Assembly: GCA_965285935.1 (NCBI GenBank)
Contig: OZ260661.1
Location: 53,010,001-53,074,000, forward strand
DNA: 64,000 nucleotides
DNA from: Ophelia neglecta
Lineage: Eukaryota
Reading direction: 5' to 3'
Shown here: positions 4,791 to 62,892 of the stretch, one piece after another
How the letters are laid out: every line of letters begins with the position of its first letter
Numbering within the stretch: the first letter of the stretch is position 1
Translations under genes and position numbers: made by a program
Notes under the pieces: model-generated
What the model was told of the DNA's origin: nothing
Database searches by the model: none
Seen by the model: the letters and a program-made list of their open reading frames with translations, nothing else

Positions 4791-5820
4791 CTTTGAGTAT
4801 CCGTACTGAGTTCTAGCCTATATAAAAGCCTGCATGGTTTTAATATTCACGGGAGCACGTAAGCGGCCATATTTATTGGAATGATGCTAATGTTTTAGGC
4901 ACAGAGTTAAAGATGATGAGGAGATAGCCTTCGTAATGTATACATGTGTAGCAGACCACCAGACTTGAGCCAACTCTCTAGAGATACACAAACACTTATC
5001 GCAATATCGGGGATGGAAGCGGGAACCAAGTTTCTCCGCTTCATCAGCCAGGCTATTGTGTGTTATGAACCGTGGCACCGCTCGACTTGGGAAACCCGGC
5101 TACTCCTTCCAATATCTCAATTGATTTTTACGAAAGAGCAACCCTATTGATTCAGAAGCAACTATTTTAACTTCATTGCACAGGCGACATTTTGGCCTGA
5201 TGTTGGCGATTGGCAGCACATTGAGTTAAATGATGACCCTTTGACCCTGGACAATACGGTCGTCTGAGTCGCTAATATGAGCAGATGTGGGGGACTTCGA
5301 TCGCTATAGCCCCCCTGGGTAAATGGGGCGAGAAAACTGGTAAAACTGATCAGCCGTCACCACCTAATTATAGCCATTACTCTCAATACACCCCTGAATT
5401 CAATCAAACATTTTACTAGGAATGGCAAAAGCTGAAATTTAGGACATGTCTATCCTGCAAAAGAATGTATTTAATACGAATTTCATCCTCAGCTTGTATT
5501 TAGCATACTAATTAGGCATAAGCCATTTGGATCAAGCTTAAATTTGGAGATCAGAATTCCTCTAGTAAATAAATGAATCATAACTGAGTTAGGCCCATAG
5601 ATATATAGCCAGGACATGAGTGCTCTTATATTTTACCTACAATTGTCTTTCCCACAGTGGGATATTTTGGACTTCACCTTGCCGTGACCAAATATGTCAT
5701 CTAACTTTATGGTTTTATTCAAAGAAGATGAATTGGAAAGAAACATAAACTGGTCAGTTTGAATAAAGTACAAAGGGGCGGGGGGGGGGGGGGGGATCAA
5801 CATTGATATCTCTTTTGAGT

Positions 5821-6053
5821 CAAGTCGTGTAAAATCGCGCATGGCTCAGGCTAATTAGGCGCAAAAAGTAGCCTTATTCCGCGCAGGAAATATCCTTGTT
5901 GCACCTACGCCGTGCAGACAAGTAATTTTAAACACATATAGGCTAGGCCGTATTTATTTCGGAATCCCCAAGTAGCTTTATTCTGCGCTCATTATGCGCG
6001 AAATAAAGCAACCTACTGCGCGGAATTATACGATGTGCGAAATTACCAGACTT
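5821..6053. mobile_element. Decayed MITE-like element with imperfect terminal inverted repeats of about 60 bp
   Basis: Left end: AAGTCGTGTAAAATCGCGCAT...TAATTAGGCGCAAAAAGTAGCCTTATTCCGCGCA (5822-5885). It aligns to the reverse complement of 5995-6053: AAGTCTGGTAATTTCGCACAT...TAATTCCGCGCAGTAGGTTGCTTTATTTCGCGCA. There is no ORF and no clear TSD. Confidence 0.55.
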
Positions 6054-9000
6054 TTCCCTGAAGGCTTATATGAATAACTCCTGTAGGGTTATTTACCCCA
6101 GGGATAGGTCAAGTTAGAAACGCACTTACACTATTATCGTGTTAAACCTATAACTTAGCCGGGCAGGTGCTTCTCAGTAAATCTTTCAGATTAACACATC
6201 AAATACGTTCGCTTTTCTCCAAAGTATAATGTTTCGGTGCCACTCGTGAAACAATAGACTTTAATTTCTTGTGTAAACCGGCGTTCACTAGTGCTGAAAA
6301 TTACTCATTTTTCGCCCTTTTGTTTCGCCAACATACAAACGCACCTTGCATCGCTCCGACAACTGTAATGGATATATTCTGGTTGGGTAGATTCGATTAA
6401 GCCCGACCTCCCACGAGAGATGATCTGAAAGGGCAATTTTAGCTATAGAAAGTGTGTTTCATTAACACCGAGTAACAAAGCTTTACTTATTACGTGGCTC
6501 TTCAAAGCCCGCCCGCTTCTCTCCTCGGCAGGTTTACGTAAATAATAGTTTATATGTCCTAAGACTGTGATTGGTGGTAATAATCAACGCTGTGGTTTGA
6601 TTCCAAACCATTAGTCGAGATTGACTGATAATTCTGTTTAATTGCCAATTCGCTACATTGTGAGTGAAAGCCCATGTTATGTTTTCTTTGGAAAACAAAT
6701 TTGATAACAACTGAAATCAAAGAGACATATTAAATACGGTTTTGTTTCCAGCTATGCTAAGGTAGAATCCCACATGAAAACAAGGGCTGAGACAGAGAAT
6801 TTGTTTTCATCAATTGGGTTCGATATAGGCTACATCCAGACTTTTATGTTCTAAGGAGTAGGTACTGCTGTCTATATTGACGTACGTTGTAAATAATAAG
6901 GTGAAAGTGGAAGATTAGGGGAATAATCATAACACAACTGATAGAATCTATCAATATAGAATGCCATTTTCTATCTTAAATATAAGCCGATAGCCGACAG
7001 ATGTCCGGTCAAAACAAGCCGGTCCTAGGTTTACTATGGTGGGCTAGTGCATGGTTTTGGCCGTCATGCGAATTGATATTTAATGGTGATATAGTTGATT
7101 AGTAGATGAGTTTGTCACGTGATTAAGGATCATAAGAACACGTGTACATGTACATTCCTAAATTCGTGATATCACTTAGCAGAGCGTTCTATGTTGTGTA
7201 CTGATATCGGTCTATGTCCCGACTGATCACCGGACTCATGCAGGTTCTAATCAGTCAACAAAGAGAATCCTCTTAGAATATAGACGCATGTCTATTATGA
7301 AATCTTTATAGCAACTTAATTAGTCTTTCCCGCCGCTCACGGAATTAGAAATTGTTCTTAAGGGAAGAGTACTTATATATTGCCATTATGATAAAATACC
7401 AATATAAATTAAATTGAATTACACTAGTTTAGGCCTATATATATTTCATTCATATACATACACGTCGCAATGCTGTAAGTATACCAATAGCCACACCAAG
7501 CAAAAGTGTGACTGTGATTCTAAAAGCTTGCGGTTTTTTGTTAATTAGTACATAATACATATTGCTGCTCGGAGATGATACTGTCCCAGGTGCCAAGTCT
7601 TACAGCCATGTTGATGACAATACGTGTTCAGCGGGCTATACTGAAAGCTGTTCATCGAAAATGAAATCAAAGCCTTGTACTGGTGGCGATGGGGGAGGCG
7701 GGGACGCGATGCTACACCTGAGGTGTGGCCCAACACCACTACAAAGTCCCGCCTCACGGCCCGTCGGGACCCTCCTCCACTCCCGGACACCAAGTTACGT
7801 CCACACTCATTTCCACGCCGTACCTCTCCCAAAGCCGCTCCCAACTCTCCAAGAGAAACTCTCCACATGTGTTCCGGAAAGGTGTGAACCTGCTTTGTCG
7901 TCTGCCGTCTTTGATCCGATCTGATTCGGAAGCGCTCCCTTCCATTCAATATCATTCTTTTTTGATCAGGTTAACATAATCTGGGCAGTAGTGGTATTGT
8001 TTTTCTGGTAATTTGCTAAATAGCCGCAATTTGCCATAAGTATTACGCAGTACAATAACGACATTGACAGACGGTCGGATGTCTAGGGCGACTAAATAGC
8101 CGTGTGAATATCTTTGATTGTAGGCAGTGAGCGCCCTAAACACTCAGCCACTCGGTGAAAACAAACATATTTGTCTCCTATGTTAATGTGCTTACCAGCT
8201 AATTACTGCTGTAAGGCTCTATTCTCTTTGTCCGTAACAACCACTACACGACCCTTCAAACAGTAATTGTCGCAAATTGCTTCCGCTATTAATGCTCAGA
8301 TTTATCCAACTGCTTATTTGTGATTTTGATTATGAAAGTATAAAATAAATTTGTTTCAATAAAACTCTTTGTGTTTGTGTAGGAGATCGTTCATTTTTCT
8401 TTGTAGATAGTTCACTTATATATATTAAGTTGGCTTAAAGAATATATACGATAAACACTTATATATATATATAAAGATATATATAACCTGTTGATATTTT
8501 TTTACGGATATTCTTTTCAGCTTCAGTGAACTATAATGTATGCCCCCTGTGAGAGTTTTTTATTATTTCCATTATAATATGATTTTTGAGATGGCCTGGT
8601 CGTTCTTATAATATGTTGGTGATATATGATTTTGGGATTTGATGCCTCTGTGCTTCTCTTCATATCATTCCGTGGAGGTCGGGTTATTTCGGCGTTGAGG
8701 GGAGAGGTCATCCCTCGACGGTGGCCCTCGGGAGCCATGTATCGCTCACCCTCCGCCCGGCCTCAGGTGCGCCTAGCAGCCACTCCGGTTTTTATCTTCA
8801 AGCTTGGTCAGAGGGGCAGTGGCTCGCAGGGCTCGGGGGACGGGTCGAGGTTGCCGAGCGACCCCGGAATAAGCTGCCTCTGCCTAGGGAACCGACGCCT
8901 TCGGGGTGTAAAACGTCGGCGCCTGGAGACGGCAACAGCCCGTTACAAATGAAACAGCAATCCTGGGCAAGCCGGATCTCCAGAGACTGCTGCTGTCGAC

Positions 9001-10707
9001 CGGCTAACTGCCAAAGAAAGGCTAGCAAACAGCAAGGTGTGAGCATTGATCACCAAAAACAGCTCTACCTGTCAAACGGCCGGAGGGAAAAACCTCACCC
9101 CTCCCCCTTAACACCACCACCACCAACTTTAGGGGTGGGGGTGGGGTGTGAGGAAATTGTTAAGAAATCTGACCCACTTAAATTTGAATTTTAACCCTTG
9201 TCATCTTATCTAGTTAACCGTCAAGGTTTTCGCAGCCCATGGCCTATGTACTTTTATATCTTTGGACAGAATTTTCATGCGGGGGTTAATTTAATGTCCA
9301 TTGCAGACATACAGGCCTATAAATCTCTGTAGGAAGTAGCTCAATCTTTTTCTGCAAATTCATAATTGTTTTTTTTTCGTGTTATTTAGTATAATATATA
9401 GCTAGGACTATATTTTTAGAATAATTCATATTATATATATGCCTAGATGAATATAATTTATAATATAGACATTCATTCAGGTTTATAGCTATCAAAGGCC
9501 GATTTGCCAAAACACCATCATAATTTAGGAGCTTATAATGTAGGCTTATATCTACGTATTATATAGGAGTTAATTTGCTAGAATCAGTGTCATGTCCATT
9601 ATTCTATAGGCAAAGATTATTAGCAAACTTCCGCGAGTATTTAACTCTTCTTAATTACTGTCTTGTGTCTACCGTACATTCCCACTGGTTCATTACCAAT
9701 ATCGTCTGCTCGAAAGACCATCTTACAAGTTATGTACCAATTTATTGTAAAGAATATAGCCGATTAGATGCCCGATACATTTCTTTTCACAGATGTAGGC
9801 TACCCCTGTCGGGCTGGATTAGCCACCTGTTGTATATATTTAATGTGCATGAATGAAGCAGATTAACGGTAACTCGGCAGACGTATACGTGGTGATTATC
9901 ATCCCTCCCCCCTCTGCCTCATTCCGATTGTTTACCGTCCCCGAGATTCGTATTTAGATCGCTGGGAGTTAAACTTTCCGACTTGTGCATGGGAAGTGGC
10001 CTGACAATGGGGCGGCCACCCATTGCGCGCTGGTTTGTGTAGCCAGGAAGGTAGCTAAAAGGTCGGACCGGCGCACGTGTCCAGGTAGACTCCAGCGGGA
10101 GTACTGACAAAACCTCGGCCTTTCACTTAATAACAATTAACATTAGGCAGAGGATGAGAACAGCCCGTCTTGGGAGGCAAGGGAGAGTAACGAACAGAGA
10201 TTTAGTTATACTCACTATACTCCCCAAACAACCCAAGTAAAAAGCAATCACTAAACAACACGAGGGATCCCATCTATACTCAAAGCATGGGTCCATGCTC
10301 AAAGGAAGCATCCCCATGAAGAGAGAGGTCCACGTAATACATAAATTTCAAACGCCATTTTGTAGGTGGCGGCAATCACAATATGCTTTCACTCTAAGTA
10401 AGGGAGACCATTGTTATAATTGTCATATAGATTCCAATAAATCGCTTTCCATAAATCCATGTCAACCAAAGATATTTTGATGATACAGCACGGAGTAAAA
10501 ACGTAGAGACCCTTGTGCTGCATATCTTGCAAGTTAAAGAATATATATGATCTTTGTTTAACTTTAAAATGGATTGAAACTGGTTAAAAGGGGTGTTTGC
10601 GCCTTAAAATTGAATGCATGCTTTGAAAGGCAGCACCTTGTATCTCCCGATATCTGCGCACCGCTGTCTATACAAACCGCAGCAGACGACAGTTTCATCG
10701 CCACATA

Positions 10708-10723
10708 TCGCCATCTAGTGGCC
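10708..10723 (-). promoter_or_regulatory. CTCF motif (minus strand GGCCACTAGATGGCGA)
   Basis: The + strand reads TCGCCATCTAGTGGCC. Its reverse complement contains an exact CCASYAGRKGGCR core. Confidence 0.6.
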
Positions 10724-12929
10724 TCAATAAGCACCATTAGCCTATAGGCAGGAGCAATTCTTTATCACACGAGGCTATTTAGGAGGAAAATCAAGACAAT
10801 TATTAAGATTTGTTTCAAAAGCGAGAACTGTCCGCTAAGCTGATCAATGCATGCATACATGCAGGTAAAGGGACATACATGCATAAATCTATCGTTGGTT
10901 TGAAATCTTGTATAAACTTGTTCAGTTAAAAACTGGCTTCATCTCCGTTTCGGATCCCCTGTCTAAATTCGCATGGCGTTCCTGAAAATACTGGGACAAT
11001 GCTGTTTACTTTTCCCTTGATCAAATCAAATAAGTTGATTGTTACCTCCATCACATCAGTCGGTTTACTTCTCTCTCGAGTCATTGTTTTAGCTGTGACT
11101 ATATGTGTACACGTAAGCAATACGTGTTTTGTTCGGTAGACGTAATTGGCGGTCATAAGGGAACACAGACAACAGGGTTTAATCAAATCCCGCCGAATCA
11201 AAATGACCCTTGCCATATCTCTCATTTTCTGATGTAGTTCTTTCAAGCATACCGTAATTAAGCCGACTAATTATTTTAATTTCATTAGCGGAAAACGTAG
11301 CGATGTTATTTGGATGGACATTTTCCCGGGTAATTAGCAAACGTCATTTCGAGATTGCTCGCTCCGTCCGACTGTAGCCTAAGTGAATTATGAAGTGGGT
11401 GGATTGCACGTAATTTCTGTGACTCAACAAGTTCTGAAATATCACTTCTCCCTCACTGGTCGAGCGAACAAGTGATTTTACTACGTCTACTCACCTCATA
11501 AAACACTTGAGAGTTAATTATTTCCTTCACATTTTCACAATCTACGGCTGATGCCTCACGAAATTACAGTGCATGTACACTTGCAAAAGGGCACCTTCTG
11601 TCTTGCTGCAAGACCTAGGTTTGATTGAACACTTCTCGAGATTATTTTCTATTTGACACCATAAGGATTTTGGGATTGCTCTCTGCATATAAGCCTAATG
11701 GACAAAGTACCATATCTAAAGACATATAATGTGGCATATTTATAAACATCTAGAGAGATTAAAGTATATAAACTGTAGCCATGTTTTTAATCTACATGCG
11801 CTGATGAATGACTTTCCAATAATATGGACGAAACTGCTGGCTTAGGGAATATAAACACCGGCGACCCTATGTCATATTAGTTTCATTTCTTTGTGTTTCT
11901 ACCCAGGATATTCATTATTTCAATTTTAGCCATCTGAAAATGTGAAATATTGAATTAAATGGGTATTTGACGCTCGTTTTGTGACTCTGGCTATAGCTAA
12001 ACCAGCACGATCCTAGCTTCGATCTACCCTTTGGGAGCAATTAGATATATGTCATGTCTGTTGGTATTTTGTTGTTCTAAAATGACACGCCAAATAATTC
12101 AGACGTGCCCATTAATATTTGCTCTCTCACTGGGATATGTGAGGTCGAAATTGAAAGCGATAAGACAAGAGATAGTGCGACTGGTGGCCAAGTAAAAGGC
12201 ACGGCGAGGGGTCATCGTTTGGTGAAATGAGAGTTGCGGACAAGTGCAATCAGTTTCTGCTGCGTCCGTGCTCATGGCATATGCATGACGAATGCACGGC
12301 CATCTGTCGGGGTAAAAGTCAGCCGAGCTTGCATGCTCGCTGCTTGTAACTATTTGCTTTGGATGGTTTTGTAAAGACATTACACGTTGTATTAAAATTC
12401 AATGTACACATCGACTGAAATTACACAGAGCACGAAGAATGTTTTTTTGCTGCTCTGGACACAGTGATGTAAATTATTAATCTTATCGACTTGCACAGCG
12501 TTTTGGAGAAAAAATGCCATTAGTATTGCTATGCATGGGCCTATAGTTGAATGTAAAGGGCAATAGAAAAGGTAGTAACTTGACTTTAGTCCTGGCTAGG
12601 CATTGTTTGCGTTTTTAGATGTGACTTAGTTTTGATGTTAAATGTGCATCTAAACACATTGTTGTGCCATTTCTCTTTTGATCGAGAAGTTCCATCACAC
12701 TGCAATTAGTTTCTCTCTTTCCGACTCTAGCAAGGCGTTCTGGTATTTAAATGTTCCCTCTTCCTCTACCTGCTTTGAGCCCTCTGCCCCTCTGGGCACA
12801 TGTTCACTTCATCCCGCACTTGTTCCTCAGTGTGTTTGAAGTCTTAGGTTTTGTTTTGATGTTTGACAAATGAAAATAATATGATAATGCAATGCGATCC
12901 TCTTCTGGTTAATGGAGGCAGGTTGCTGC

Positions 12930-13090
12930 TCTGTGATTGGCCGCGGTGCCGTAAGTGACACGGGCCATGTGCCATATTTGGCCAACCAGTAATTATTCAT
13001 GACGGCTGGGCGTTGCGGATTGGCCTGTCGCGTGGAGTCTCGGGAGCGTCCATGGATCCCCCCTGCGGGACTGGTAATCCTCAGGGAGAG
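12930..13090 (+). promoter_or_regulatory. Putative proximal promoter of coe
   Basis: The sequence shifts from AT-rich to GC-richer about 600 bp upstream of the ATG. It contains reverse CCAAT boxes (ATTGG at 12936 and 13019), a CArG box CCATATTTGG at 12972-12981 and a POU4-like TAATTATTCAT at 12990-13000. The TSS is not determinable. Confidence 0.45.
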
Positions 13091-13605
13091 CGCGAGTACG
13101 GAGGTATATGGTACCGACAAAAAGCGCTACTCGAGAGAACTAGCCATCAGATTGATCCCAGTCCTAGTCGGCGCGAGGATACTGCCAAACTCTCCATCTG
13201 GGCCGGGATTTAATGACAGGCGGTCATTTCAAAACGACAACCCATTCAAACATTGCGAGTCGGGATTGGATCAGGCTTAGTCCGCTACCACCGATCCGTG
13301 TTTATGCTCGGAAACTTTAAACAGTCTATCCATGTGCTCGGCTTTCGCGTGCCTAGTGGATCTCAGGGCTCGTCTTCAAACTTCTCGACATAGTGCCTAG
13401 GTTGCCGAGGTTGGTCCCATAAAAGCACAGGCCCATGGAATAGTGATATCATTAGCTGTATAATAGACGCCGAGTGGTAGCCATCCGCCCTGTTTGGGAG
13501 TTGTAGTGTAGGATCTACTGTCTGTACACCAGGAACAGCCCAAAGGAGACATTTACAACCAGCGCTACACCATTCAGCCTTAAATCTTGCACACAAAGCC
13601 TTTAC

Positions 13606-13736
13606 ATGTTTGGGATACAAGACGGTCTCCCGACACGGGGAGCTGTGACCAATCTAAAAGAGGAGCCAATTTCTAGTCAGCTGGGAACCGTGAGGAACTG
13701 GATGCAGCCTTCGGTGGTAGACCAAGGGAGTGGGAG
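13606..13736 (+). CDS. coe: COE/Collier/EBF transcription factor, coding exon 1 (MFGIQDGLPTRGAVTNLKEEPISSQLGTVRNWMQPSVVDQGSG+AG)
   Basis: ATG at 13606, with an in-frame upstream TAG at 13504. The MFGIQ...KEEP...WMQ N-terminus is typical of EBF/COE proteins. The exon ends AG|GTGAGT in phase 2, which joins exon 2 in frame (AG+T = Ser). Confidence 0.93.
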
Positions 13737-13974
13737 GTGAGTACCGCCGGGCCCTCAGCCCCATCCCCAGTGACCCCCGGAACACGACACCCGGCCCCGG
13801 AGTGTCGTCTCCGCAGATTACACCTAACCCTATTTGTCGATTTACGCCTGCCGCCTCCGAAATGGCTTTTATCCTTCCCCTGTCACCGGCCTAAAGGCCA
13901 GCACAGGGCCATGGCTTCGACAGAGGTTTTTAAAAGCTTGTTGCCAGACATTGGGGAAATGTTCGTATTTATAA

Positions 13975-14196
<222 letters not shown>

Positions 14197-15269
14197 TAGT
14201 TTAGTTCTGATTAGTAACATTATATATAGTTCTATTATTGATTGCCATTCAGTTACATTAAATATTCTTCTGGTGGTGTCCAGTTTTACCTGACCATAGG
14301 CCTTTATATATTTGTCTGTATAATTACCATACCCTTGATAGCTTGTTTGTAGAATCCCAAAGAATTTGTACCCATTTTGTGTCCTATAGTTTTGTGCATT
14401 CATGCATCCTGTATATATGATTCAATAATTAATGTACATAATGAACATTGTATCTTATATTCTTCCACGTGGGCCCTTCCGTATGATTTTCTCTCGGCTC
14501 TGGGAGTCGGAACTACATTTATTCATTTTATCAGATTCCAACACAATACACATAGAGTCCCGGATAGGGACATTGTTTTTGTGCTGCATACGACTTGTCT
14601 GTGCATGATGAACTAGACTAGAGTACTTAATAGTTCAACAGCTCGGATACTGGAGAGCTGGGAATTCATAACGTGGTTAGAGAGAGAATCCAAGTTCTTA
14701 TGCCGCATTGCTGCGTTTTCTTTGGGGCCAAGGGAACTTGGGTCTGATCGAAAGCTTAAACCCTCTACTGAGTGGGAAACTATTTTTCCAAATGGCAGCA
14801 GCGCGTCAGAGTTTTATTTCTTGTGCAATGGGGATGAACAGTTATTTGGCCTTTCAAGTTATGAGCTTTCCCCAGCTGAAACGCCAGAGAACTGGCCAAT
14901 TATGGCCACCGTCTCATCGCAGTAATATCACCTGTAGCTGTAAGACTGCCGTTTAAGCCTCTGCTACGGAATTACGGGGATATTTATATCTTTAATGCAG
15001 CTCTCATGTTTTCTGTCCAAGATTGCCTCAGGTGAAATCTACATACTTGCTTGGCTAAAGGACACTTTTACCATTTTTCAAAGAGAAGATTTTGGAGCTT
15101 TCATGTATAAAGGAAAAAATATAAGGGAGCACCAAAGCACGTGACTTTGAGATTGTGTAGTCGGAATGAATACCAAAAAACATCCTCGAGGAAGCCTAAA
15201 ATTGACCAGACGTTCTGTACTTAGTTTCTGTGCCGTTTTTACTGTTCTCTATATATTTCTTGTTTGTAG

Positions 15270-15330
15270 GAAGTAGAACCAAAGACGAACAATGGGATAC
15301 ATTACAGACTCCAGCTTCTATACTCAAATG
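15270..15330 (+). CDS. coe: COE exon 3 (EVEPKTNNGIHYRLQLLYSN+G)
   Basis: Acceptor ttcttgtttgtAG and donor GTAAGT at 15331. KTNNGIHYRLQLLYSNG is a conserved COE motif. Phases 0/1 are consistent with the neighbouring exons. Confidence 0.97.
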
Positions 15331-17791
15331 GTAAGTCAACAGTCACTTCTCTCGGCTATTTGAAGTTAAATATTAGCACACAATATAATATTGTTGAACC
15401 TATCGACAGCCTTAACAATACGGAAGCTATATATTATTAAGAACTGAATAGCAATAGCTGGAATAAATGAATATCCAGTTATAGTATATTCAATCCTCAA
15501 CCTGGTGTTTTTTGGTGTTGGAATATTATTGTTTGCGGCGTTCGCTGTAGTTTCTCTCGGCTCAAAATTCTAGGGACTTTGTTGTCCGTCTCTTGGTCAA
15601 ACGCCATGTTGCGCCGGTGTCTTAATCTTCATATTCCCTTCTAAGTACTTAAACGGGTGACAGGCGAACAAACGAACAATGAGATGGCTGGGTAAGCCGC
15701 CCAGTATTGCAACCTGCTAGGGTTCTTTAACTCCATCAGAGACAATCCGATTTAGACGAATATTGCCTTTAATGCTCTTGACTCTGTTCTGAACACTCGG
15801 TCTTCTCAATGGGTTCTTGTCTCTCGAGTACCTTGTATTTGTTCAGTGTTACAAATCGCAGGCTAGCAGACTCGACGGTTTGCAGCTAGTATTGGTATTT
15901 TTCTGCCACTGCCCTGGCACACAAATAGTGGTGAAGCTAGCTGTCCCAATATGGCAGCTCGGAGATGGAGAGGCTTATGAAAATCTAATCAAACGGCTAG
16001 AGTAATAGATAGTCCTTGTGATAATATGATCCGAAGCACGATTGATTGGGCAAGTGGCTCGTCTTAATTCTGTTGAAATTGGTCGATCAGATATCGTGGT
16101 CTGTCATGGCGTAGCCGATGTAAGGCTTTCGCCATGGCGGCCCTGCAGTGTTTTCATTGACACTCAAGTCGAGATTGAGAACTCCAAATAATTACTGGTG
16201 ACGCAAGGAAATGTAAACTCGCCGTAATAATATAGAGTTGGTGAACAACAGCGAAGTGTCAATGTTCCATTTGTCCACCATTGCTGTTTCCTTGTTGGCC
16301 AATTGCTTTGCTTGCCACTTCCTATTTACATTTCACCATTCATGCCGACATCTTTAACTTAATGGTGGTGGTTTTAGTCGGCTTGGTATGTAAGTTTATT
16401 TAAATGAGAGCCTGCACCTATTTATGGGGCCTATAAAACCAGGCGATAGTGTCAATAATACACATCGCCGGTGACAGAAGCGGGGGACTGTGACCTTTGT
16501 TTTGATGCTCATACAACACGACCTGATGACAAATTCACTGTCATGAAATATTCACCACCTTTACATCCATATAGATGGCTGCAGCGGCTAGCTGCCTTTC
16601 TAAATCCTACCACTTTCCGCTCGTCTTGTTCTGCGAGAAAGGCCGACTGACTAGCCCAGCAGAGAAGGGGCCAGACTGGGATAAGGCGGCTGCCACAAAC
16701 AATATAAACTGCCAATTAATGAATCCCCGGCTAGGGCAAATCCCCAGTATTTTCGTCTGATCCCTTGGCCAGAGAGCGGCTCTGTTATTTCGCCCTTTTG
16801 CCATCTGGCCCTATTGGCCCGTGTCTATTGTAATACTCAATTGATGTATCGCCCAACTCGATCACCCGGCTCTCTCTCCGGCAATTTGCTAAATGTTCCG
16901 CGACCTATTCTGTCCACATCGGTCAGCTGTGCCTGTAATGAGCGATAGTTTCGGGTAATTCGGCCCGGGCTATAGGCTTTCTTCCTCCGATATTGCGGCT
17001 CCATCTCTTTGTAGCTACTAGCGAATCCCATCAACATCACATCCCGCCCGCCATTCATTCATGGCAACATTGCTCTGACATGGCACGATGTTCAGCTGAA
17101 CGAGCCATTGGAATCACAATCAGGCTCTTTAAGCATGTGTTACACAAAACAAAAGCCCAGTGTATATATTGCCTCTCCTGTCAGTGTAAATAGTCTAGCA
17201 CAACCGGAGAAATTCTGGTAATTTATACCACAATGGTTTATTCTCAATGTACCTAGTCTGTGTAAATTGTTTCCCTTAAATAACGCGTAATTGCCAATAT
17301 TTATATTTCGTATCACAGCGTAGGCTATTTTACGTACATTTTTGCGTACTATTTACTATATTTTTAATCGATGAGTCTTAATCTTAGTTTTATTCTGTTT
17401 GATGAAATATTAATCCGGTTAATGTCATTTTCTTGTTAACGCACAACAACAATCCCTGATACATCAGGAAAGATCGATTTCAGTGCGGGGGCAATAGATG
17501 AACTGTACCGGTGTACCGATTACTCATTGAGCTACCCGTGTTGGCTGGTGGCAATCAGCCCTCCCCGTCCTGTACGCTCTACAACACTTCTCCCCTCGCA
17601 TCGCAAAACTGTCTAAACTCGTATCTTCAGAGATTAAATACCACGTCGGCCGTTTTTCTGGGTGGGATTTTGCATGCATGTTGTGGGCTAAGAACAGACA
17701 GTCGCCTTCAATTGACAATGTGATGTGTCCTGTTTTGCGTGCCAGGTTAATAATTGTTGACTGACCATGTAAATGTCTTGTCTTCTTGCAG

Positions 17792-17847
17792 GCGTTCGAC
17801 AGGAGCAGGACCTATATATCAGGCTCATTGACTCGGTCACAAAGCAG
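17792..17847 (+). CDS. coe: COE exon 4 (GVRQEQDLYIRLIDSVTKQ)
   Basis: Acceptor tcttcttgcAG and donor GTGAGT at 17848. 56 nt, phases 1/0, with the conserved RxEQDxYxRLIDSxTKQ motif. Confidence 0.97.
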
Positions 17848-20685: not shown

Positions 20686-20759
20686 GCAATCGTTTACGAG
20701 GGCCAAGACAAAAATCCAGAAATGTGCAGAGTACTGCTCACACACGAGATCATGTGCAG
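20686..20759 (+). CDS. coe: COE exon 5 (AIVYEGQDKNPEMCRVLLTHEIMC+AG)
   Basis: Acceptor ttttttattgtAG and donor GTAAAT at 20760. 74 nt. Encodes YEGQDKNPEMCRVLLTHE and the first half of the zinc knuckle. Confidence 0.98.
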
Positions 20760-20917
20760 GTAAATAATTTCATATCAAAACAATCATCGATGACAAGTGT
20801 ACTCTGTTATCAAATGTACGATCTCATATTTAGTAACTAGAAAGTCACAGACTCAGACTAATTACCATTCTTCTTTTAGAATAAATTCTGATATTAATTC
20901 ACATCGTTGCTTTCCAG

Positions 20918-20986
20918 TCGATGCTGTGATAAAAAGAGTTGCGGCAATCGAAACGAGACCCCCTCAGATCCCGTTATCATCGACAG
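20918..20986 (+). CDS. coe: COE exon 6 ([23 protein letters not shown]+AG), completes the H-x3-C-x2-C-x5-C zinc knuckle
   Basis: Acceptor gttgctttccAG and donor GTAAGC at 20987. 69 nt, phases 2/2. Matches the COE signature [21 protein letters not shown]. Confidence 0.98.
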
Positions 20987-49050: not shown

Positions 49051-49077
49051 ATTGTTTACATTGTTTACATTGTTGAC
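49051..49077. repeat. 9-bp tandem repeat ATTGTTTAC-ATTGTTTAC-ATTGTTGAC
   Basis: Read directly from the sequence. Confidence 0.85.
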
Positions 49078-52000: not shown

Positions 52001-55000
52001 AAGCAAACTGCATACACCCGTTTACTCCGGCTGAATTTGCTTTACATGCTGCAGCAACGGATAATACAGGCTTGAAAGGACAGAACATTATCAGGGAGAG
52101 CGTCTGCTCGGAGGTAATAATACCGCAAAGAGCCGCGCTTGCTCCATCCGGCTCCCTAACTATATTGTAGACCTCGTTTACTTCTCTTCCAATTGTGTTG
52201 CACATCCCTCTGTATAAGCTGAATGATACCTTCTCTAATGAATTTAGTCAAGTTCATTATTCTACTGCCTCGCTTATTTTCTGTTCGCATGTCGGTGAAA
52301 GATGCCACTCGGTCGGTTCCTCGGCTACACAATGCAGGCTCCTAATCACCCAAACGACATTTCGCCAAATGTCCCCGTATTTGTGGTGTTATCACCGTCT
52401 GCTGACAGCCAATATACAGCAACAAACCGGGATACACCGCTTAATACATTATACATTGTTCGCAAGGACAACAACCGACGTTAAATGTCAAGTTTGTGTC
52501 TACATGGCATATATACAGGGCTTCACCACAGAGCAGGTGTTCACGATTTGTTGGCCTTGAATAAATATTTATCCGCTTCAAGAATCGTGTATCAGATTCC
52601 CCGTCCTTAAATTTCAATCATAATAAAATATCGGCTGAAAGTATTACCCCCCATAACGATATTACTCGTTGTTGATTGAGCAAACGCAGTCGGAAGGCCC
52701 GTGTTTGCCCAATGTTTGTCCTTGCTCCCAGCTCTATTGGCCATCGCACGCTGAGCAATGGCCGATTCCACTCAGCACTCGGAAGACACAATTTGTCGGC
52801 GATATTCCGCAATTGAACGGCAAACTAATCACCGCTTTCCTGTAATATTCCGGAAAAAGAATGGCTCTGTTGCATTCAAGCGGTGATAATGGCATCATGT
52901 CGACGTGGTGCGAGGAGTTGGCTTTTAGAGGAGTAGAGTCAGGCGAGATTGGAAGGGCATGGTGTGTGTCTGCTTCATAGATATATAGTTATTGGTTTAG
53001 TGAAACTCTCTCTTGTATTTTTTTTATAATCATTATTATAGGTCTTTACCTAATCTATGCCCTAGTTCTGTTGTATTGTTGTTGAACTCTTGATAATATA
53101 TTTTAATGTCATGTAAATTGTTAGGCCCTGGGTCCATGGTATGTAATATTATAGCTTTCAAGTTAACATTTAATAAACTGTGATGACACTTATATAGAAG
53201 CTCTATGTTCGGATTGAAAGGAAGTGTTATTATTAGGTGACCGATGTGAGCCGTAAGGCATCTTATTATTCCCATTTTTAGCGTGCACAGTGGTTAATGG
53301 TGATTTAAAACGTGGTCCTTTCTCTAACACAGGCCGACGTGTAGGAGCAGGGGGCATGCTACTTCATTGTAGCCGGGCGGTGACCAATGGTCGCAACTAT
53401 TAGTTGGTTTAAGTCTTTTTTGTTCTTTTAACAACCCAGATTAAAACCAAGTGATCTATATGCGTATTATAGCCTATAAAATACCAACAGGATGCAGAAT
53501 GATAAGATATTTTGAGCGTGCCGTTTTTGGCTGCCTTGCCATTGAGGCTGATGCTTTGTCGCTGCTGATAGAGCGCAGCACTATACAGACAAACAGCAGG
53601 ATGCTGCTGTGTCTTCTGCTGCCGATGGCTGCTCTGTGACCGGCAATACAATCGACGTGAGGAGAATACCCGGGGGCGTTAATAAATACCCACCTCTCCC
53701 TAAACCCTCACCGCATTTACCCAATTTGACGCCTTTGCGCCCTGAGACAATACAATTTGCCACCCAAACGCCCGACTGCTTGTGGCACTATTGCCGCCCC
53801 AAAATTGTATCAAGTGCTTATTATTCTCTGAAGGCTTGGTCTTTTCTTTGCATGTCGATTGCCGAGAAGAGAAAATCACATTTCTTATGCCAGCGGGCGG
53901 CGCTCAGGGGAGTGGTTAGCGATGTGCCACGGATGTCGACTAGCGAGGCTCAGCTCGTCTTTACCTCATCTCCTCACCTCTCGTGATGCCTCTCTTCTGG
54001 AGCACGCTTCCTACTTCTCTGGGACTCCAGTGTCACCAGCAGCACACGTCTAAACATGCTAAATGTGGCTTCCTGCAATTGTAAAATGACACATTGTCCA
54101 AGCCAGATACAAGTTTCGGTTTGTGATCGGTGAGGGATCGGTGGGGTCGAGAGAGCAAGTGCCCTTCCGTCCTAATACGGTCATCTGGTTCCTGTAAACA
54201 AGGCACACTTCCGCCAGCCAGTGACCTTTTTTCTAGACCCCTTTTTACATTGAACAAACGCCGTATCTGTTGCATGCGTTGATATTTTCCGGGCTCGCTG
54301 TTTTGTCATTTCTAATTGGCACACAATGGTGAATGGGCGGCTGGCACCGCATTAGAGACGTGGAGGTCCTGGGGCTGTCGAGCCCCCTCTGTCCCCCGGG
54401 GGCCGCTAACCATCCCGACACGCCTGCCCTCCCGACCCCTATTGGCCATCTGCCTATTATACGATGACAAAAATATGATCGATATCAACGCATCCCGCGC
54501 TATATTTGCTTGATTAAATTTTATATCAGGAATTCGGAGGCAGATGAAAGAAAACAGCCACACCATACATAAAACATATTTATCTTAGGCGCATTTACAG
54601 GGACACATTATTTGGAAATAAGCCGGAATATTGCAATATCCAAATTTAGTTCTGTCCCCTGGGAGGTGGATTATACGTGAAGCCCATATGCAAGAGATCA
54701 TCTCATTATTGGCGAGGACCACTTTACATTGGCCCTCGCATTGGACACGGAAAGTGAATCGGGCGATTAGGTGTCTAATTCAATTCTTAAAATAATTCAG
54801 CATCTTCAATCACAATGTCGGGATCGGTTGAATGATATCACGGGATATCTCAATGGGACGGAGGGTTGGTATATAGTGACCAGCCCGCTGAATCAGCCAT
54901 AACGAGCTCTATAGTATCAAAACCATCAAAGACTCTCTCTTGAATTATCAATAAGCCCTGCCCAAAGACGACGTCTGCCAATGGCCGAACATTCACCAAG

Positions 55001-57280
55001 CATACATGAATTTTAGATCGAACTGATCGATGTATCTCATCATGTAAATCATTCAGTAAACTCTCCAAATAGATGAATAATGTTTTCATCTGAAGTTTGC
55101 CTATATATGTATACCGTCATATAGCAAACAGTTTGAGCGGCACACCCCATTAAACATGCAGATATCAGCTATGCCAGGCCATGCCCTTTTCTCTGTCAAG
55201 TCGCATGGCAGTGATGAATAATGATGAAATGAGGAGGAGAAGAGAATTAACATGAGAGGCTTTGACTGGGCGCCTATCATGTGTCTGGCCGGGGACCTGG
55301 TGGCGTTTGTCCTTCTTGTTGCCTCTTCTCATCTGGGCAACTATCGCTCCATAGAGAGGGGTTTAAAAGGCCCCTTGGTACGAGAAATTTGTTTGGCAAA
55401 ACACTTCTGAATTACAATAATCACAAATGAAATACCTCAAGGAGAGGAGGGCATTCGAGTCTGTGGCCAATTGCCATTCATCCTTTCTGCGGGTGCGGGA
55501 CTCGAGTCAACAGTCCCGCACTCCCTGTGAGCTTGTTCCGGCTTCCCGAATGCTTTGTTTACCGATCAAGATTTCGGCACACGAGGAGCATTCTGGGAGC
55601 CTCGATTGCATTTATTTCCTCTCGCCTTGATACTCGAGGGCTCTCCCTAGAATTGTAACAGACCCTCAGCGAAATAAGATTATACCCTCAATTTCCCCAA
55701 TTATTCCCCTAAACAGAGGGAGCTTAGGTACCGTTGATTGATCCAAACGATGATTCTACCGTAATTAATTGGATTCTTGCGAAATTGCTAATTGCTTTTT
55801 GCCTATTTCTGTCTATAATCAAAATTAAGAAAATGTCACCCCTGGAAGGCAATAATACATGGTAAAATTGAAATCAACATACATGTATATATATATATAT
55901 ATTAGGTTTTTTTTCATATTTGCCTTTTGATTGGTGATCCCATATTTTGATAAGTTTGCCACCTTATTGATGTATACCGATGCAGTGGTCGGGCCTGAGA
56001 ACGACCGAGACTCAGTCGTCGGCGGCGGGTAATAAGGTGGGTTTTCCGTAGCCGGTCTCGAGGGTACCACAATGTTATTAGTCGGCTTGCTTTCCTTACA
56101 TAAGTGGCGTTAAGCAGTGGCGTAAAATAATGTTCTTGCCGTGCCCGAACAACAAGTAATTCACGCTGGTCACTGGGGGTTTCTCTCTTCTTGCTACTTA
56201 TTTAGCGCGCGAAATAAACTAGATGGAAAAGGCGAGTTAGAAAAAAACATCATTAACTGTGGAGGGCTTGTTGGTTATTCTCTGATTCTTCGAAAACCAA
56301 ATTAAGTACAGACTTGGTACCAAAGTCTTTTCGTGACTTGTTCACGACTGTTTTCCTATACCATTGGAAAACTACACAGACAATTAAAAGAAAGAAAAAC
56401 CAGTATAATTGCATGGATATTCCAGCTGTTTTATTATGAAAAGATGTGCTTTACTACTGGCGTAGGAGATACGGTGCGTGTATTAAAATACGTGCCCATT
56501 TGAGAATTGAATAGATTCCCTGATTACAAAACCATTAGCGTGGTTTAGCATAAGTACTAGTGATGAGTTAATTTCTTTTCTGTCTCATAAGCACAAGAGG
56601 GATTAGGCTAGAGCCGAATAGCTTTAATTAACTGAATCCAGAGTTTGTGGAAAGATTTCTCATAATGGCCGACTCCGCAAATGTAGATTTAGAAAAACTA
56701 GACCATTTTGCAAACGAAAGAAAAAGTTTGTTGCCAGTTTATGACTACACTAATATATATAAATATATCGATGTATACTACAAATGCTGACGATACTAGG
56801 CCTATAAATTAAGTGCCAAGTCGCATGACAATCATCAGTTCGGCGTTCTACTCGGGTTTATGTAGTCGCTGTTTGGATAATAAAGACTCGCTCATCAATA
56901 CTTTCCCTGTTTAATTAAATTAATTTCATACTATCGGTGACTGGGTCATTTTCTGAATTTGTTTTGCCGAGATATGGCGAGCGGGACGCCTCACGACATG
57001 CGTGATACATGTAGCGCTGATGATTTTCACACACTTCGTTTCATAGTCATGCAATAAAGACTGTATATTTCAAGACCTTTCAGTCCCACAGGCAGAATTT
57101 ATTTCATGGCATTTGTTTAAAAATTGAACAGGGCGTAATTCGTTCTATCATAGATCGTCTGTTACAGGTAAAGGTTGGGAGATGGGTCCCATTTTTAGAC
57201 AATTCTGCCGCAATGTCTCGCGATCATCGATGTATCGCGTGATTGGAATTATTAAGATTAACAAGCATAATACATTCCAT

Positions 57281-57334
57281 GTTGGATGTTCTGATGATGT
57301 CGGATGTGCGAATGGTGTTGGATGTTCTGATGGG
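57281..57334. repeat. 18-bp tandem repeat x3 (GTTGGATGTTCTGATGAT-like), followed by a G tract
   Basis: Units start at 57281, 57299 and 57317. Units 1 and 3 share 16 identical nt. Confidence 0.75.
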
Positions 57335-60300
57335 GGTGGGGGGGGGGGGAGTTGAGCAATTCCTCCACGAACTGGAAGAGGGAAGCAGACGACTTGGAAG
57401 TTTACTCAACCGAGCGTAGCGGTGTTATGGTATGTTGTCAGTTGGGACTTACAGTCCATCCTCGATGGAACTCTCCGTCTCCCCTGATCCAGCTTCCGTA
57501 TGTATAGTCGGCCACATAACGCCGCGGTCCTTGACTGAGATAAAGATTGGTGTCGTTCTGATCAGAAAGACCAAGATGGGCGCTATCCAGATCACAAAGC
57601 TCTACTGTCTCAGATCACAATCCCGAACCCCTTAATTTCTGGTCGTCTGAAGGACACATTTAGGTGCTTTATTGTCAATTTTCCACAAACTGTAAGCAGC
57701 TGCAACTGATGGTAGGAGGCGATTAATTATTCAGCAAATGCCGGCTCAATTTGGAAGCCTCAGCGTCTCGGGAGCAGCGTCCCTGGCTGGGAGGGATTCC
57801 ATTGCCGTATTATGGGGGTCATACTTCTAATTATGTGTTAATTCGGCCGACATTAGGCTGTAGAGTTGCCATTACGGTGATCAGGCCCATTCCTGACGTT
57901 TTTGTGCGGTGATGACGCGCCGAATTAAGTCAGAAGACAATGCCAAACACATTTTGCCAAATCCCTCTAGCCTCTGAGGGACAATCAGAGGTCGGAGGCG
58001 AGCCCGACAAAGCTTGGCCCCGGCTTTCGCATGGTCATTACACCAATGTCATTAAACTGTTCTTCATTCATTTAATGCAACTTTTCTAACCTTGTAAGAG
58101 GCTTCATTGAGCCGGCTGCTTTATCAAGACTATTTGCTAAAATGTGAGCGGTTGTTTGTTTGAGCGCCTGTTGTGTTATGGGTATTTCTGCTAGCGTCCC
58201 TTGTGAGAGGTCTTATGAAGGCCAGAATGGCCCCGGGCTGACTGACTGGGGTGACCGGACCTAGACCTTCTTCTCCCTGACTACCTCATAACAAGTCCTC
58301 CGGTCACAGATCTTCCAATGCAGCCGGGAGCCATGACCTACTTAGAATATCTGTCATTGCCCTGTCTCTTTAGACGTCAACTGGTCTCCAGGCCATAGAA
58401 CCATTCTCAATGGTGCTTTCTTGTTCGCTGTAATTAGGAGAAGGCCATGGATCATTTTTATTTGACTCTGAGCCGCTTGAAGCTTACCCTCCTCTACCAG
58501 GCCAGTGGTCAAAGAGGGCTACCCATGGAGGGAGGGGAGGGTTTAGGTCAAAGGGTTCAGGGTTAGATTATGATATGTGGGTTCTTTCAAGTGGGCAACA
58601 CTACCGGGAATGGTTCTATCAATGCTAGGAGAAGGTTCCAGTACAGCTAGAAGAAGGCAGTGTATACTAATGGCGCACATGATGTATGGCAATACAAACA
58701 TGTAGTGTATATCAGGCGGCTTGCTCAATGACCGGAGTCAGATATTATTGGCCATCTGAAGGCAAAACAGTCATCTTGGTGGCATCTTCTTGTTCTTGAT
58801 CGGGCTTTTATATTCAGATGGGAGAATGCTTGCTCCCCGGGGCCTTCCTGAAAGCAAAACAGAACAAAGAGCCCCCAGGAAGCAATAAGTAGGTGGTCTT
58901 TGCCTGCAGTGTATTGTCACTTATTCTCCTTTACTTTTTACTTCTTGTGCCTCTATTACGCTTTAGGGTATCATTTGGCAGCCATGATCTATTAGAAAAT
59001 GGATGGGGATGTGTTTTGTTAGATTATCAGTTGCCGGGGTATATGGCTCCCGCTCTATGATTAGGCTATCCTGTGCATGTGAATACTCTCGGGATAAAAG
59101 GGCCCGAGGGCGACGGACTCTTGAGAGCCGAACCCGCCCCAACTCCTCTCTCTTCGCATTCCTTCACACCGACTTTTTGTTAACTTGCTCCAAGGTGATC
59201 ACTGTAGTATTTGCAAATCTCCTGCGAGACTCCGGTTAAGGAGGGTCAAACATGCAATCGTCCTGCTGCAGCTTCTGCTTGGCACCTGTTCAACAAGCAG
59301 GCGGGTAGCTGTGCCAATTTGATCATTTTGATATTGGTGATTCTCCCATGTTGGTCTGATTCCTTTCTCTGCCCTGATGGCTTTGCCTAATGCTCAAATA
59401 CCTGGTGCTCATGCATGTGTCTCCGCGACAAATGATTTCGTTGTATTACCACATAATATTAATATATCAATTCATTTGTGTTCCTAAAATATAAAGCCAC
59501 CAATTTCTTTAAACACAGCAGTGGTATAGATATGGTAAACTGTGACAGCCTTGAAAGCCGGATTGAGTCAGATGCCTCGTATCTAGGTCTCCCTATAATT
59601 ATGATAGTAATGTGACAATTCATCACAAATTGCCCTTCTCCGGTTACATATGACAGTTTAATAAGATTATTTTCAATTAATGCAATCTAACAGTTGCCTG
59701 GAGAGGCACTCCACCTGCTACCCCTGTCGTCTGCCGTTGCAGTCGTTTTGTTTGCTCTCTCAGCGCTTCCGTCGCATTGTTATCTACTTTTAGGAAAACA
59801 AAAGGTACCAACACTGCCCGGAAAATTGTAAGGTGATCTTCGCTCAGAACCTGATCGCATACTTCCGAAAGTTTAAGCCGGTTCAATTTGATAACTGGGT
59901 GGAGGCTGAATTTGAAACTTGGCCATTTTCTTTTCTGGGTCTTTGGTTCCCCTATTGAGCTGTTCTACAATTTAAGAGATGGACAATTTGGGAGGGAAGG
60001 CATATCTGAATTAGGAGTATGTCTAAGGCAACATTGACATGTATTGTTAATTCAATCTTCTGCGCCCTCGCTCTGCCTGGTTGGTTGCAGATTATTGTAA
60101 AATATGTCATAAAAAGGTTGACATTGTTTTGCCTAAAGGGCCCTATCTGATTGTGATGATGATCATCTTGAGGAGGACAATAAACATCCCATTGTCAAGC
60201 CTCCTATCTGTGAAAATTGGTGACATATTTGCGGATTTAAATCGTCCAAAAGCATTGTTTTCGCTTGAAACACTAAATCTCTTAGAGAGTCGGCAAAGTG

Positions 60301-62892
60301 GAAAATTCTATTGTATTGTTTGAGGTGTTTCTATATTATGCCGTGTGTGATTCCACCAGGCACATTGCCAGAGGGCACGGTCCTGGGCATTTATTAGCTG
60401 TATAATGCGGTGTGTGGGACAAAGATGAACGGTTCTGTATTTCCATACCCAGTGAGTGGTGAGCAAAAGAGACAGCGGGTGTGGGGGTTGATAGCACAGA
60501 AACTTCAACACCCTCAGGCTAGTTTTGATGGAACAATTTGCATAGGTAACATCCCATTATCCCGGCCTACCATGGGGTCTACATGTAATAGGCTGACATT
60601 TGGCCTCGCGATTAAAGCTACTCACGCTTGACAATTACAAATGGTCCGCGAGCACAATGTGCAAGGAACGCCATTAATCGGCCACATTCGCTGACGAGTT
60701 TATTTTCCTTTTACCATAATTAATGGACTCTTGAAACGTTTTCTAGATTAAATTCACAAGCCTGGTGACATTGTTTCAACTCTGATGAGAGACCATTTTC
60801 GGAGTGCTATATTGTAGTCAGAAAGAAAGAAAATTCCTCATATAATATATTGGCTTAATAGATGAAACATTTAGTTGACAATTTGGCCTTTATATTTGTA
60901 TCAGTGATACGTCCTGTATTGAATGCCAGTTACTAAGTTGATTTCCTACCATTTTGACCAATTCCATTCGACCTAGAATGGAGGCTTTGTCCTTATACAA
61001 GACCCCCCCCCCCACTCCCCCCAACCCCTTCCTGCATGGTAGGTTGTAGACTAGGGTGACCATGCCGTAACTGGCTCTAAAGAAACATGCACCTTGCCGT
61101 GGAACTGTCAGTCACCGCCATCTGTCTAATGTTAGGCCTGCCATCAGCCGTACATCGCCAGATTTGTTTATAAGTGATCTTATGGTCACTTGCATAATGC
61201 TGGCACTTGGCGTGAAGCGAACTCATTAAAGTTGTAACAGAGCACACGTATTAGGCAGACACGCACGGAGAGCAGACAATGAGATGGCTTCCTTCTAGAT
61301 GTGTAGGATTACATTTAAATATATTTTCTCATAGAGTTACGTCGGTGCCACCCCGGGAGAGTTGGCTAACTGTCGGACATATCCACCGCCCCCACCCCGC
61401 CTCAAAACACAAACATAAAGCTCGCAGCTCGGTCAGACGACATCCCAATATCTGACAGGCCTGCAGGACTCCCGCCATTACGTCAGAAGTCAAAGAAACT
61501 GCCAACTGTTCCTGTGAGAAGGAAGCAATGGTATTCAAACCCAACATCATAACACCAAATGCTTTCTTAATTACATCCAACAAAATTAAAGTTAGGCGGC
61601 ATATGGCTTCTTTCTTTAACCATCTCAGTTTTGCATGACATTGTTATGCTTTCCACAACTCATTTGATCATCTTTTCAGGCGTCTTCTGCAAATATGAAT
61701 TACAAGAAGATGCTCGTAGTCAATTTCGTGCTCAACAAATTTGGATTGCAAATGAAAAATCCATCCAGCATGTCTACAGAGGCGGTAGATGATGCTGGCG
61801 CCTCTGCTTATTGCCCCGGCTAACCCTCACGTTCTGCTATGGATTACCATTAGCCCCTCACAAAGACAGATCAAACAGGATTCACCTTGTTAATGTTTGG
61901 GCAGACGAGACTAAGCCAAGATATCTTCTGCCTGTCAATAACAAAATAATGACTTCCTGTAAGCTTGCGCGGCGGGCTTGACGCCGGCAAAGGAAGATGT
62001 TTTAGAAATTCTATCCATGTTTCAATGGCTGGATTATCTACCGATGAAGCAGTTGAAAAAGGGAAATTATTTTGACACGGTGTGAGGGGCTCCCTTGTGT
62101 AATATCGGGCTTTATTCAACATAATGGTAAGATATAATCCATCAAAGAGCGGACTAATGGCTGAGAACACCGGCCTAATGCAGTCGCTGGCCCTAATGGA
62201 AAGATAGGACGTAATCAACGTGGCCTAATATACACATGCTCTTTCTATACCATTCACAGTATTATCAAATATTGATGCCATCCTCTCTTCTATTCATAAC
62301 GTCCCGCACTCAGAGCGGGTTAGATATTCACCCCCGGTGTTGAGTAGGGTTGACCCGGAGTGGTGACTGCCGCCGACTTTTATGGACAGGACAACGGGCG
62401 TAGTTGGTAGAGACTACGTGACATACGAGCGGGGAGGACACCTTTCCCGGCTGTTTACGACCACCAGTCGACTTGTCCTCATGCGCTAATGCCCCTTAGC
62501 TTCTCTCATTCACATTAAAAGCACACATAAAGACCCAGCATTAGAAGGGCACCCCCTTTCTTCGGCTTGTCATGAAGATATATCAAGGTATATACCATCC
62601 AGGTTGAGCACACGAATCAAGCGAAAGCCCTACCCGAGACACTAATGACATTATAAGACTTCTACGACATGCTTCGCCTGAATAATATATAGCCCTAGCA
62701 ACAGAGTGCTTTGCCATCTTAACTTTTTGCTTTTTGGTTTATTTTCTAGGTAGCTTGTAGATCTGATCATGGAAGTTTTACATCAAGTAAAGTTAGTTTC
62801 GCCGAGGGAACTGTGCCTCTTTAAGCCAGTGCTCAAAGACCGTGATTAGAGGAATCATTGGCCGAGCCCATGCCTCTAACAGCATATTTGAT

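Follow-up and report, generated by a model that had tools for sequence, protein, structure and literature searches.

The coe (Collier/EBF) locus of Ophelia neglecta carries many copies of a short, CpG-containing word that is also enriched at Hox and other developmental loci of this genome, and that is accompanied by E2F-like words at a minority of its sites. The starting point is a stretch of 64,000 nucleotides (the window; GenBank assembly GCA_965285935.1, contig OZ260661.1, positions 53,010,001 to 53,074,000 of the forward strand), which forms part of contig C1 of a 762-Mb genome. We favor, with a probability of roughly 0.4, the reading that the word is the binding site of a putative factor other than Smad that would work with E2F/DP to recruit Polycomb-type repression. 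One part of this reading, that selection maintains the word as a site for some factor other than Smad, is probably correct. The most complete version, in which a lineage-specific word of 11 base pairs, a putative DNA-binding protein and E2F/DP would together nucleate Polycomb repression at developmental domains, is rather doubtful. From sequence patterns we infer protein binding at the word, an E2F/DP partner, and an outcome of either repression or protection from methylation.

Over-representation of the octamer in the window

A sequence-only reading of the window had reported 18 exact copies of the octamer CAGACGAC, and all 18 are present where it placed them, 11 on the plus strand and seven on the minus strand. 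Its counts of a 5′ G (11 copies) and a 3′ A (12 copies) are reproduced, and the flanks of the copies are unrelated, as it had said. Where it had estimated about one to two expected copies, Markov backgrounds of orders 0, 1, 2, 3 and 4 predict 1.44, 0.86, 1.34, 1.75 and 3.06 copies, respectively, at a window GC content of 43.9%. Among the 25,688 8-mers seen in the window, CAGACGAC ranks best outside poly-C and (TA)n under orders 0-3, and under orders 3-4 it is second to poly-C alone. The genome-wide rate predicts 2.1 copies in the window, for which the observation of 18 has a Poisson probability of 1.5e-11. Fifteen of the 18 copies were said to lie in coe intron 6, and this is correct because the intron opens at position 20987 and closes past the window end. 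Two variants that had been noted, ATCGTCTG (seven copies) and GCCGTCTG (six copies), do recur, but only ATCGTCTG fits the motif profile well.

Copies of CAGACGAC, in window positions:
5259..5266, minus strand, upstream of coe
7897..7904, minus strand, upstream of coe, full word GGCAGACGACA
10683..10690, plus strand, upstream of coe, full word AGCAGACGACA
25043..25050, minus strand, coe intron 6
27666..27673, minus strand, coe intron 6
29243..29250, plus strand, coe intron 6, with E2F-like TCCCGCG at 29288-29294
30966..30973, plus strand, coe intron 6
31760..31767, plus strand, coe intron 6, with E2F-like words at 31715-31721 and 31742-31748
31973..31980, plus strand, coe intron 6
46063..46070, minus strand, coe intron 6
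46718..46725, plus strand, coe intron 6
47133..47140, plus strand, coe intron 6
47766..47773, plus strand, coe intron 6
50368..50375, plus strand, coe intron 6, with TTCCCGC 32 bases upstream (50336-50342)
57386..57393, plus strand, coe intron 6, inside a 58-base heterozygous indel (57337-57394)
57642..57649, minus strand, coe intron 6
59726..59733, minus strand, coe intron 6
61434..61441, plus strand, coe intron 6, with E2F-like TCCCGCC at 61470-61476
9701 (minus), 22434 (minus), 35225 (plus), 48523 (plus) and 61902 (plus), spanning 9701..61909, five more variants of the form GCAGACGA(T/G)

An extended word enriched at developmental loci

The octamer is part of a longer word whose profile reads R-G-C-A-G-A-C-G-A-(C>T)-A, or RGCAGACGACA. 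The CAGACG core is nearly invariant, with R-G favored before it and A-C-A after it, and single changes within the core reduce the observed-to-expected ratio (O/E) from 11-14 to 0.6-2.7. The word is not a palindrome, and it is not of low complexity. Outside its 11 bases the profile is flat in 181-291 sites, and these sites have none of the shared flanking homology that a transposon origin would leave. A visible repeat was therefore rejected as the source of the window copies, which no repeat family covers, and the earlier suggestion that the copies derive from repeats is not supported for the window; some copies elsewhere in the genome do sit in tandem repeats.

The whole genome contains 25,213 copies of CAGACGAC (33 per Mb), 7,634 of which (30%) carry both the G and the A flank. 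Densities were compared among 10-kb stretches taken from the Hox cluster (25, of which 24 were used), other homeobox genes (20), Fox genes (10), basic helix-loop-helix (bHLH) genes (10 and three extra), G-protein-coupled receptor (GPCR) genes (20), CpG-poor Smad/Fox loci (13), TGF-beta ligands (10) and systematic random positions (40). One tandem repeat with 16 GCAGACG (L035) was excluded from the profile and later counts, and three satellite stretches (L010-L012) were excluded from the coe flank set. The random windows divide into 22 CpG-rich and 18 CpG-poor, or 23 and 17, depending on rounding at a CpG O/E of 0.65. Copies of CAGACGAC per Mb number 325 at coe, 185 at homeobox, 158 at Hox, 130 at Fox, 100 at GPCR and 90 at bHLH loci, compared with 40 in random windows overall (56 CpG-rich, 17 CpG-poor), 38 at the CpG-poor Smad/Fox loci and seven in the coe flanks. 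The count at other developmental loci that had been proposed as a check thus finds the word enriched there too, and the enrichment at Hox and homeobox loci supports the fallback offered earlier, namely a site for an uncharacterized factor, and a word that occurs genome-wide.

The word was also ranked against words of matched composition. Among 3,520 8-mers that each contain one CpG and five G+C, counted with coe left out in 640 kb of Hox, homeobox, Fox and bHLH loci, the three most enriched are GCAGACGA (126), CAGACGAC (97) and AGCAGACG (81), all of which belong to the same word; the median O/E of the set is 0.94 and its 99th percentile is 2.2. For GCAGACGA, O/E is 13-16 at coe, Hox and homeobox loci, 11 at Fox, 10 at GPCR and 6 at bHLH loci, and 3.8 in CpG-rich random windows (p=2e-6 for transcription factor loci versus the latter). 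A signal specific to coe was rejected, since the word reaches about the same enrichment at Hox loci and those of other homeobox genes: after correction for composition, coe differs from other transcription factor loci with p=0.017 for CAGACGAC and p=0.53 for GCAGACGA. The coe locus is at the high end of many such loci and is not clearly separate from them. Density is level across 5 kb on each side of coding domains, and spacing is near-Poisson, with about one copy per 3-6 kb.

Other words are unevenly distributed as well. The palindrome TAGGCCTA has 12 copies in the window (4408-56797), is over-represented genome-wide (49 versus 4.3 expected in random windows), and has no E2F partner; its density at loci of the homeobox, Fox and bHLH classes is about 300 per Mb. 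GAGAGAGA exceeds expectation ~10-fold at the loci of Hox, homeobox and Fox genes (L023-L062, L143-L152) and 2-3-fold at coe and GPCR loci, and the Hox cluster has an excess of CA repeats. Downstream of the Hox5 homeodomain, the residues resemble those of lophotrochozoan Scr, which makes a spiralian the likely source of this genome. Tandem arrays of near-identical Fox genes (C12:45.19-45.28 Mb) and bHLH genes (C7:5.2-6.1 Mb) were also observed.

E2F-like words beside the motif

The E2F-like words beside the motif are newly observed here. An unbiased scan of 7-mers around 231 motif sites returned GGCGCCA (13 versus 1.4-1.7 expected), TGGCGCG and ATGGCGC at the top, and GCGCCAA and TTCCCGC are within the top 14 alongside unrelated words. 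E2F cores occur 20 times near these sites (4.7 expected), a rate that none of 1,742 control CpG 7-mers matches, and TSSCGCS occurs 47 times (10.5 expected). Words of this kind are about four times as frequent as expected at 8-47 bp on either side of the motif, with peaks at about 20-35 bases on both sides and no fixed spacing between motif and partner (chi-square p=0.28). No such excess is seen near TAGGCCTA, TACATGTA, CAGACA, CAGACC/T or CAGACG outside the motif. An E2F/DP core beside a second motif is present, in other words, as a statistical excess at a minority of sites. The consensus TTTSSCGC is an E2F/DP site, and the partner words fit such a site; GGCGCC likewise serves as the GC-rich site of BMP elements, and TGGCGYY as the site of Brinker, and therefore the E2F/DP identity of the partner is one that we infer.

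Both the near window and TSSCGCS were picked after viewing the discovery data, which weakens the case for a partner, and because of this after-the-fact choice of window a genome-wide test was run. The arrangement GCAGACGA-N8-20-TTSSCGC occurs 105 times, compared with 23 for a backward control that itself holds the motif piece AGCAGACG; independence predicts 28-57 and 19-31, respectively, and the normalized difference has p=3e-8 to 6e-5. Among 100 pairs listed, TTCCCGC is present in 45 and TTGGCGC in 26 (hand tally), and the unqueried base after the E2F-like core is C or G in 23 of 30 (background 51-54%, p=0.004-0.009). A homeobox, Fox or bHLH match lies within 50 kb of 27 of the 100 listed pairs (2.8 expected), and of 22 of the 95 that remain when the five in discovery loci are removed.

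The coe gene and its CpG-rich domain

The features that surround the motif copies are the following, in window positions:
13606..20986, plus strand, coe (Collier/EBF) coding exons 1-6 (13606-13736, 14001-14154, 15270-15330, 17792-17847, 20686-20759, 20918-20986), from PF16422 matches and translations
20987..64000, plus strand, coe intron 6, which runs on to about window-equivalent 68670
4001..64000, GC/CpG-rich domain, GC 0.41-0.46 in 8-kb tiles and CpG O/E about 0.8, containing all copies

The six exons have AG/GT at their internal junctions and an open frame. Most of intron 6, which is 47.7 kb long, falls inside the window. The GC/CpG-rich domain extends to about window-equivalent 92-100 kb and holds eight further copies at 68252-80082. 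Within 264 kb around coe, 26 copies lie between 5259 and 80082 and one lies outside, which corresponds to 26 copies in the 80-kb coe domain versus one in 140 kb of non-satellite flanks. Much of the DNA beside the domain has a CpG O/E of 0.2-0.6, as would be expected of methylated gene bodies, and the motif-rich domains would by the same measure, which is a proxy only, be unmethylated.

Variation within the sample touches one copy. Of the two alleles in the sample, one lacks the 58-base stretch at 57337-57394, which includes the copy at 57386, as seen from contigs of 154 and 96 bases present in all three runs of that sample; the indel adjoins a poly-G run. No motif was hit among 40 of 176 heterozygous places (20 kb), where 0.6 hits are expected by chance. 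Five paralog pairs aligned mainly at coding exons, and no alignment spanned a motif in both members.

A satellite of ~28 kb (C1:52.982-53.011 Mb, reaching window positions 1-1190) with periods of 1,412 and 894 bases and 99% identity borders the upstream edge of the coe domain. A short, multi-copy element that resembles a miniature inverted-repeat transposable element, with a 30-base inverted repeat, is present at 44728-44815 and 58392-58627, where contig depth is raised, and it contains no motif copy.

Evaluation of a possible Smad function

The sequence-only reading had interpreted the octamer as a distributed BMP/TGF-beta input to coe through Smad proteins. This interpretation is mostly not supported, as generic Smad words are not enriched, and an input particular to coe is at odds with the roughly equal enrichment at Hox and other homeobox loci. 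In its broader form, Smad would bind the CAGAC core while a cofactor sets the flanks, and either Smad3-E2F4/5-p107 or Smad1/5 on GGCGCC would explain the partner words. We consider this improbable. The CAGAC/GTCT core is indeed present in all 18 copies, GGCGCC shows a 5-fold excess beside the motif (9 versus 1.8), and c-Myc has a known repressive composite of Smad3-E2F4-p107 (excerpt of PMC11063908), although there the Smad site is adjacent to E2F rather than 8-47 bases away. The strongest point in its favor is the Smad6/7 gene, which has four copies of CAGACGACAT across about 40 kb, most of it poor in CpG. Against it, CAGACG is the only CAGAC+N word enriched in 470 kb (O/E 2.2, versus 1.02 for CAGACA, 1.01 for CAGACC and 0.90 for CAGACT), and in the same DNA neither CCAGACA (O/E 0.95) nor the natural CAGA box (excerpt of PMC11063908) is enriched. 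Neither GGCGCC overall (O/E 0.9) nor the other GRCGNC variants (about 1) are in excess, and the GRCGNC-N5-GTCT composite, with its 5-bp spacing, occurs four times versus 3.5 at control spacings overall and once versus 0.9 at coe.

A positive control is provided by loci of the BMP pathway, where genes of the TGF-beta/BMP pathway were named by eye from translations. Canonical GGCGCC-N5-GTCT or GACGCC-N5-GTCTG elements occur twice each at Id (L180) and at an ADMP-like gene (L172) and are absent from coe, which suggests that this genome uses the ordinary BMP grammar. The word itself occurs once per 10 kb at Id and at the ADMP-like gene and not at all at BMP2/4-like and BMP5-8-like genes. BMP-ligand loci are not rich in it, and nine copies are spread over 130 kb from a set of 13 loci made up of 10 TGF-beta ligands, Id and two bHLH genes.

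Four Smad loci were found in the genome. A Smad1/5-like gene (C2:81.578 Mb, L103) has a 459-residue open frame that spans the whole MH2 domain and may be intronless. About 29 near-identical TGF-beta-family ligand genes are arrayed in tandem with a 5.0-kb period (C1:128.52-128.68 Mb, L179), either through true amplification or as an artifact of the assembly; their translation resembles a Nodal-like gene at C8:55.76 Mb (named by eye).

Proposed function and rival explanations

In the mechanism we favor, a putative CpG-reading factor would occupy RGCAGACGACA throughout the CpG-rich domains that contain developmental and receptor genes, where copies spaced about 3-6 kb apart would act redundantly. 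In a minority of cases, about 16% above chance, it would cooperate with E2F/DP at two-factor sites, and the two together would bring Polycomb-type or DREAM-type repression to gene domains. Precedents are PRC1.6 and the nucleation sites of mouse PRC2, at which E2F motifs have been reported (excerpt of PMC12424729).

Several observations weigh against this proposal. GPCR loci are enriched as well, so the word is not limited to transcription factor genes. Self-clustering is weak, with 11 gaps of <100 bases versus 5.5 expected (p=0.02) and none in excess at <400 bases. Near the motif, CACGTG (5 versus 4.2, 1.18-fold), the cell cycle genes homology region (CHR) word TTYGAA (24 versus 26.5, 0.91-fold) and PHO-type GCCAT (1.27-fold) are not enriched, and a TSSCGCS word is near only five of 30 coe-domain sites. 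About eight of the 100 listed pairs look by eye like duplicates of repeats, and one of nine copies at 42-62 kb is gone from the other allele. No candidate binder emerged from 30 fetched loci, of which three encode true finger arrays, none with the predicted helices consecutive. A three-finger zinc-finger code, GCA-GAC-GAC, was tried and rejected, as its one-finger pattern gave 38 matches versus 36 in the control. At 80 metagenome Hox loci (373 kb of short, mixed-taxon contigs), GCAGACGA occurs 15 times versus about 10.4-10.6 expected and GCAGACGACA three times versus 0.9. The lack of clear enrichment at the Hox loci of other animals, thin as these data are, suggests that the word is restricted to a narrow lineage. 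Finally, the density gradient of TAGGCCTA across locus classes resembles that of the word, and old, repeat-poor domain DNA may therefore gather words without selection.

This last point belongs to an explanation in which the word has no function, and arises by context-dependent mutation or from ancient repeats to survive in old DNA with unmethylated CpG. Enrichment that extends genome-wide and is 2-4-fold even in random windows would fit it, as would the share of octamers with both G and A flanks, the near-Poisson spacing, the copies in tandem repeats, the one polymorphic copy and the like behavior of TAGGCCTA. It is poorly reconciled with a non-palindromic, complex word whose flanks hold no information past 11 bases, and enrichment in CpG-poor DNA is not shared by the two CpG-decay products (GCAGATGA 1.9-3.0, GCAGACAA 0.3-1.0). 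Mutation alone would not set E2F-like words 8-47 bases away, a partner that TAGGCCTA lacks, and we regard a neutral origin as improbable to the same degree as a Smad site. A stronger competitor, though still an unlikely one, is a lineage-specific general enhancer, pioneer or tethering factor (resembling Zelda, GAF or CTEP) that would open or loop regulatory DNA, with E2F as one co-bound partner and an effect that is permissive or architectural rather than repressive. All count data fit it equally well. Density peaks where complex regulation is expected (coe, then homeobox genes) and is flat around coding domains, and lineage-specific motifs are described at Capitella loop anchors (excerpt of 10.64898/2026.05.18.725834), as is a methylation-sensitive ctenophore loop motif that contains CpG (excerpt of PMC12221973). 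Loop or insulator motifs, however, are expected at boundaries or anchors, whereas the copies are spread almost randomly within the domain, and the sole partner found is E2F-like, from a family with known repressive complexes.

Comparison with known systems

The word is best described as a candidate domain-marking cis-element, either architectural or like a Polycomb response element (PRE), and we assign it neither to the PREs nor to BMP elements or PRC1.6 sites. Text search, which misses figure logos and supplements, showed no earlier report of it among the papers listed, and an excerpt of PMC12460157 contains nothing relevant to it. In Drosophila, PHO and GAF motifs recruit Polycomb complexes to PREs. 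The O. neglecta word resembles these motifs in being short and concentrated at Hox and developmental transcription factor domains, as evident from its densities at coe, Hox, homeobox, Fox and bHLH loci, and GAGA repeats in this genome are likewise concentrated, ~10-fold, around Hox, homeobox and Fox genes. It differs, from sequence alone, in being a different word that occurs once per 3-6 kb, is weakly clustered and is not associated with GCCAT; PHO and GAF motifs are not clustered in a short element around it (GAGAG is 1.45-fold near the motif).

The pairing of a GCGGGAA-type word with a second word in CpG-rich DNA recalls PRC1.6 (E2F6/DP1 with MGA/MAX), for which GCGGGAA is the E2F6/DP1 motif (excerpt of PMC5806899). 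Unlike in PRC1.6, the second word is neither an E-box nor a T-box, and its sites are intronic or intergenic and not evidently promoter-centered; neither the E-box (MGA/MAX) nor the CHR (LIN54) is enriched near the motif as a partner. Smad elements, BMP response elements and the c-Myc TGF-beta inhibitory element likewise contain CAGAC with GGCGCC and E2F words nearby (excerpt of PMC11063908), but the O. neglecta word needs CG and A-C-A after the core, shows no CAGA-box enrichment or fixed spacing, and does not appear to be concentrated at BMP-pathway genes. It shares with the Capitella motif of topologically associating domains and loops, compared here by text description, an apparently lineage-restricted distribution and a tie to regulatory architecture (excerpt of 10.64898/2026.05.18.725834), and with the ctenophore CTEP1/2 motif a CpG inside the word (excerpt of PMC12221973). 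As these excerpts describe them, both mark contact-mapped boundaries or loop anchors, whereas the O. neglecta word fills domains.

For coe itself the outcome is ordinary, as it is one locus among many, itself at the high end of density. The word offers a ready pull-down bait, with about 100 two-factor sites as a test list, and even if activating or architectural it would help to predict regulatory domains from sequence alone. To our knowledge, little is settled about what specifies Polycomb-type domains in invertebrates apart from flies. If the proposal is correct, the word would represent a third mode of Polycomb targeting, directly readable from DNA, beside the PREs of flies and the CpG islands of vertebrates.

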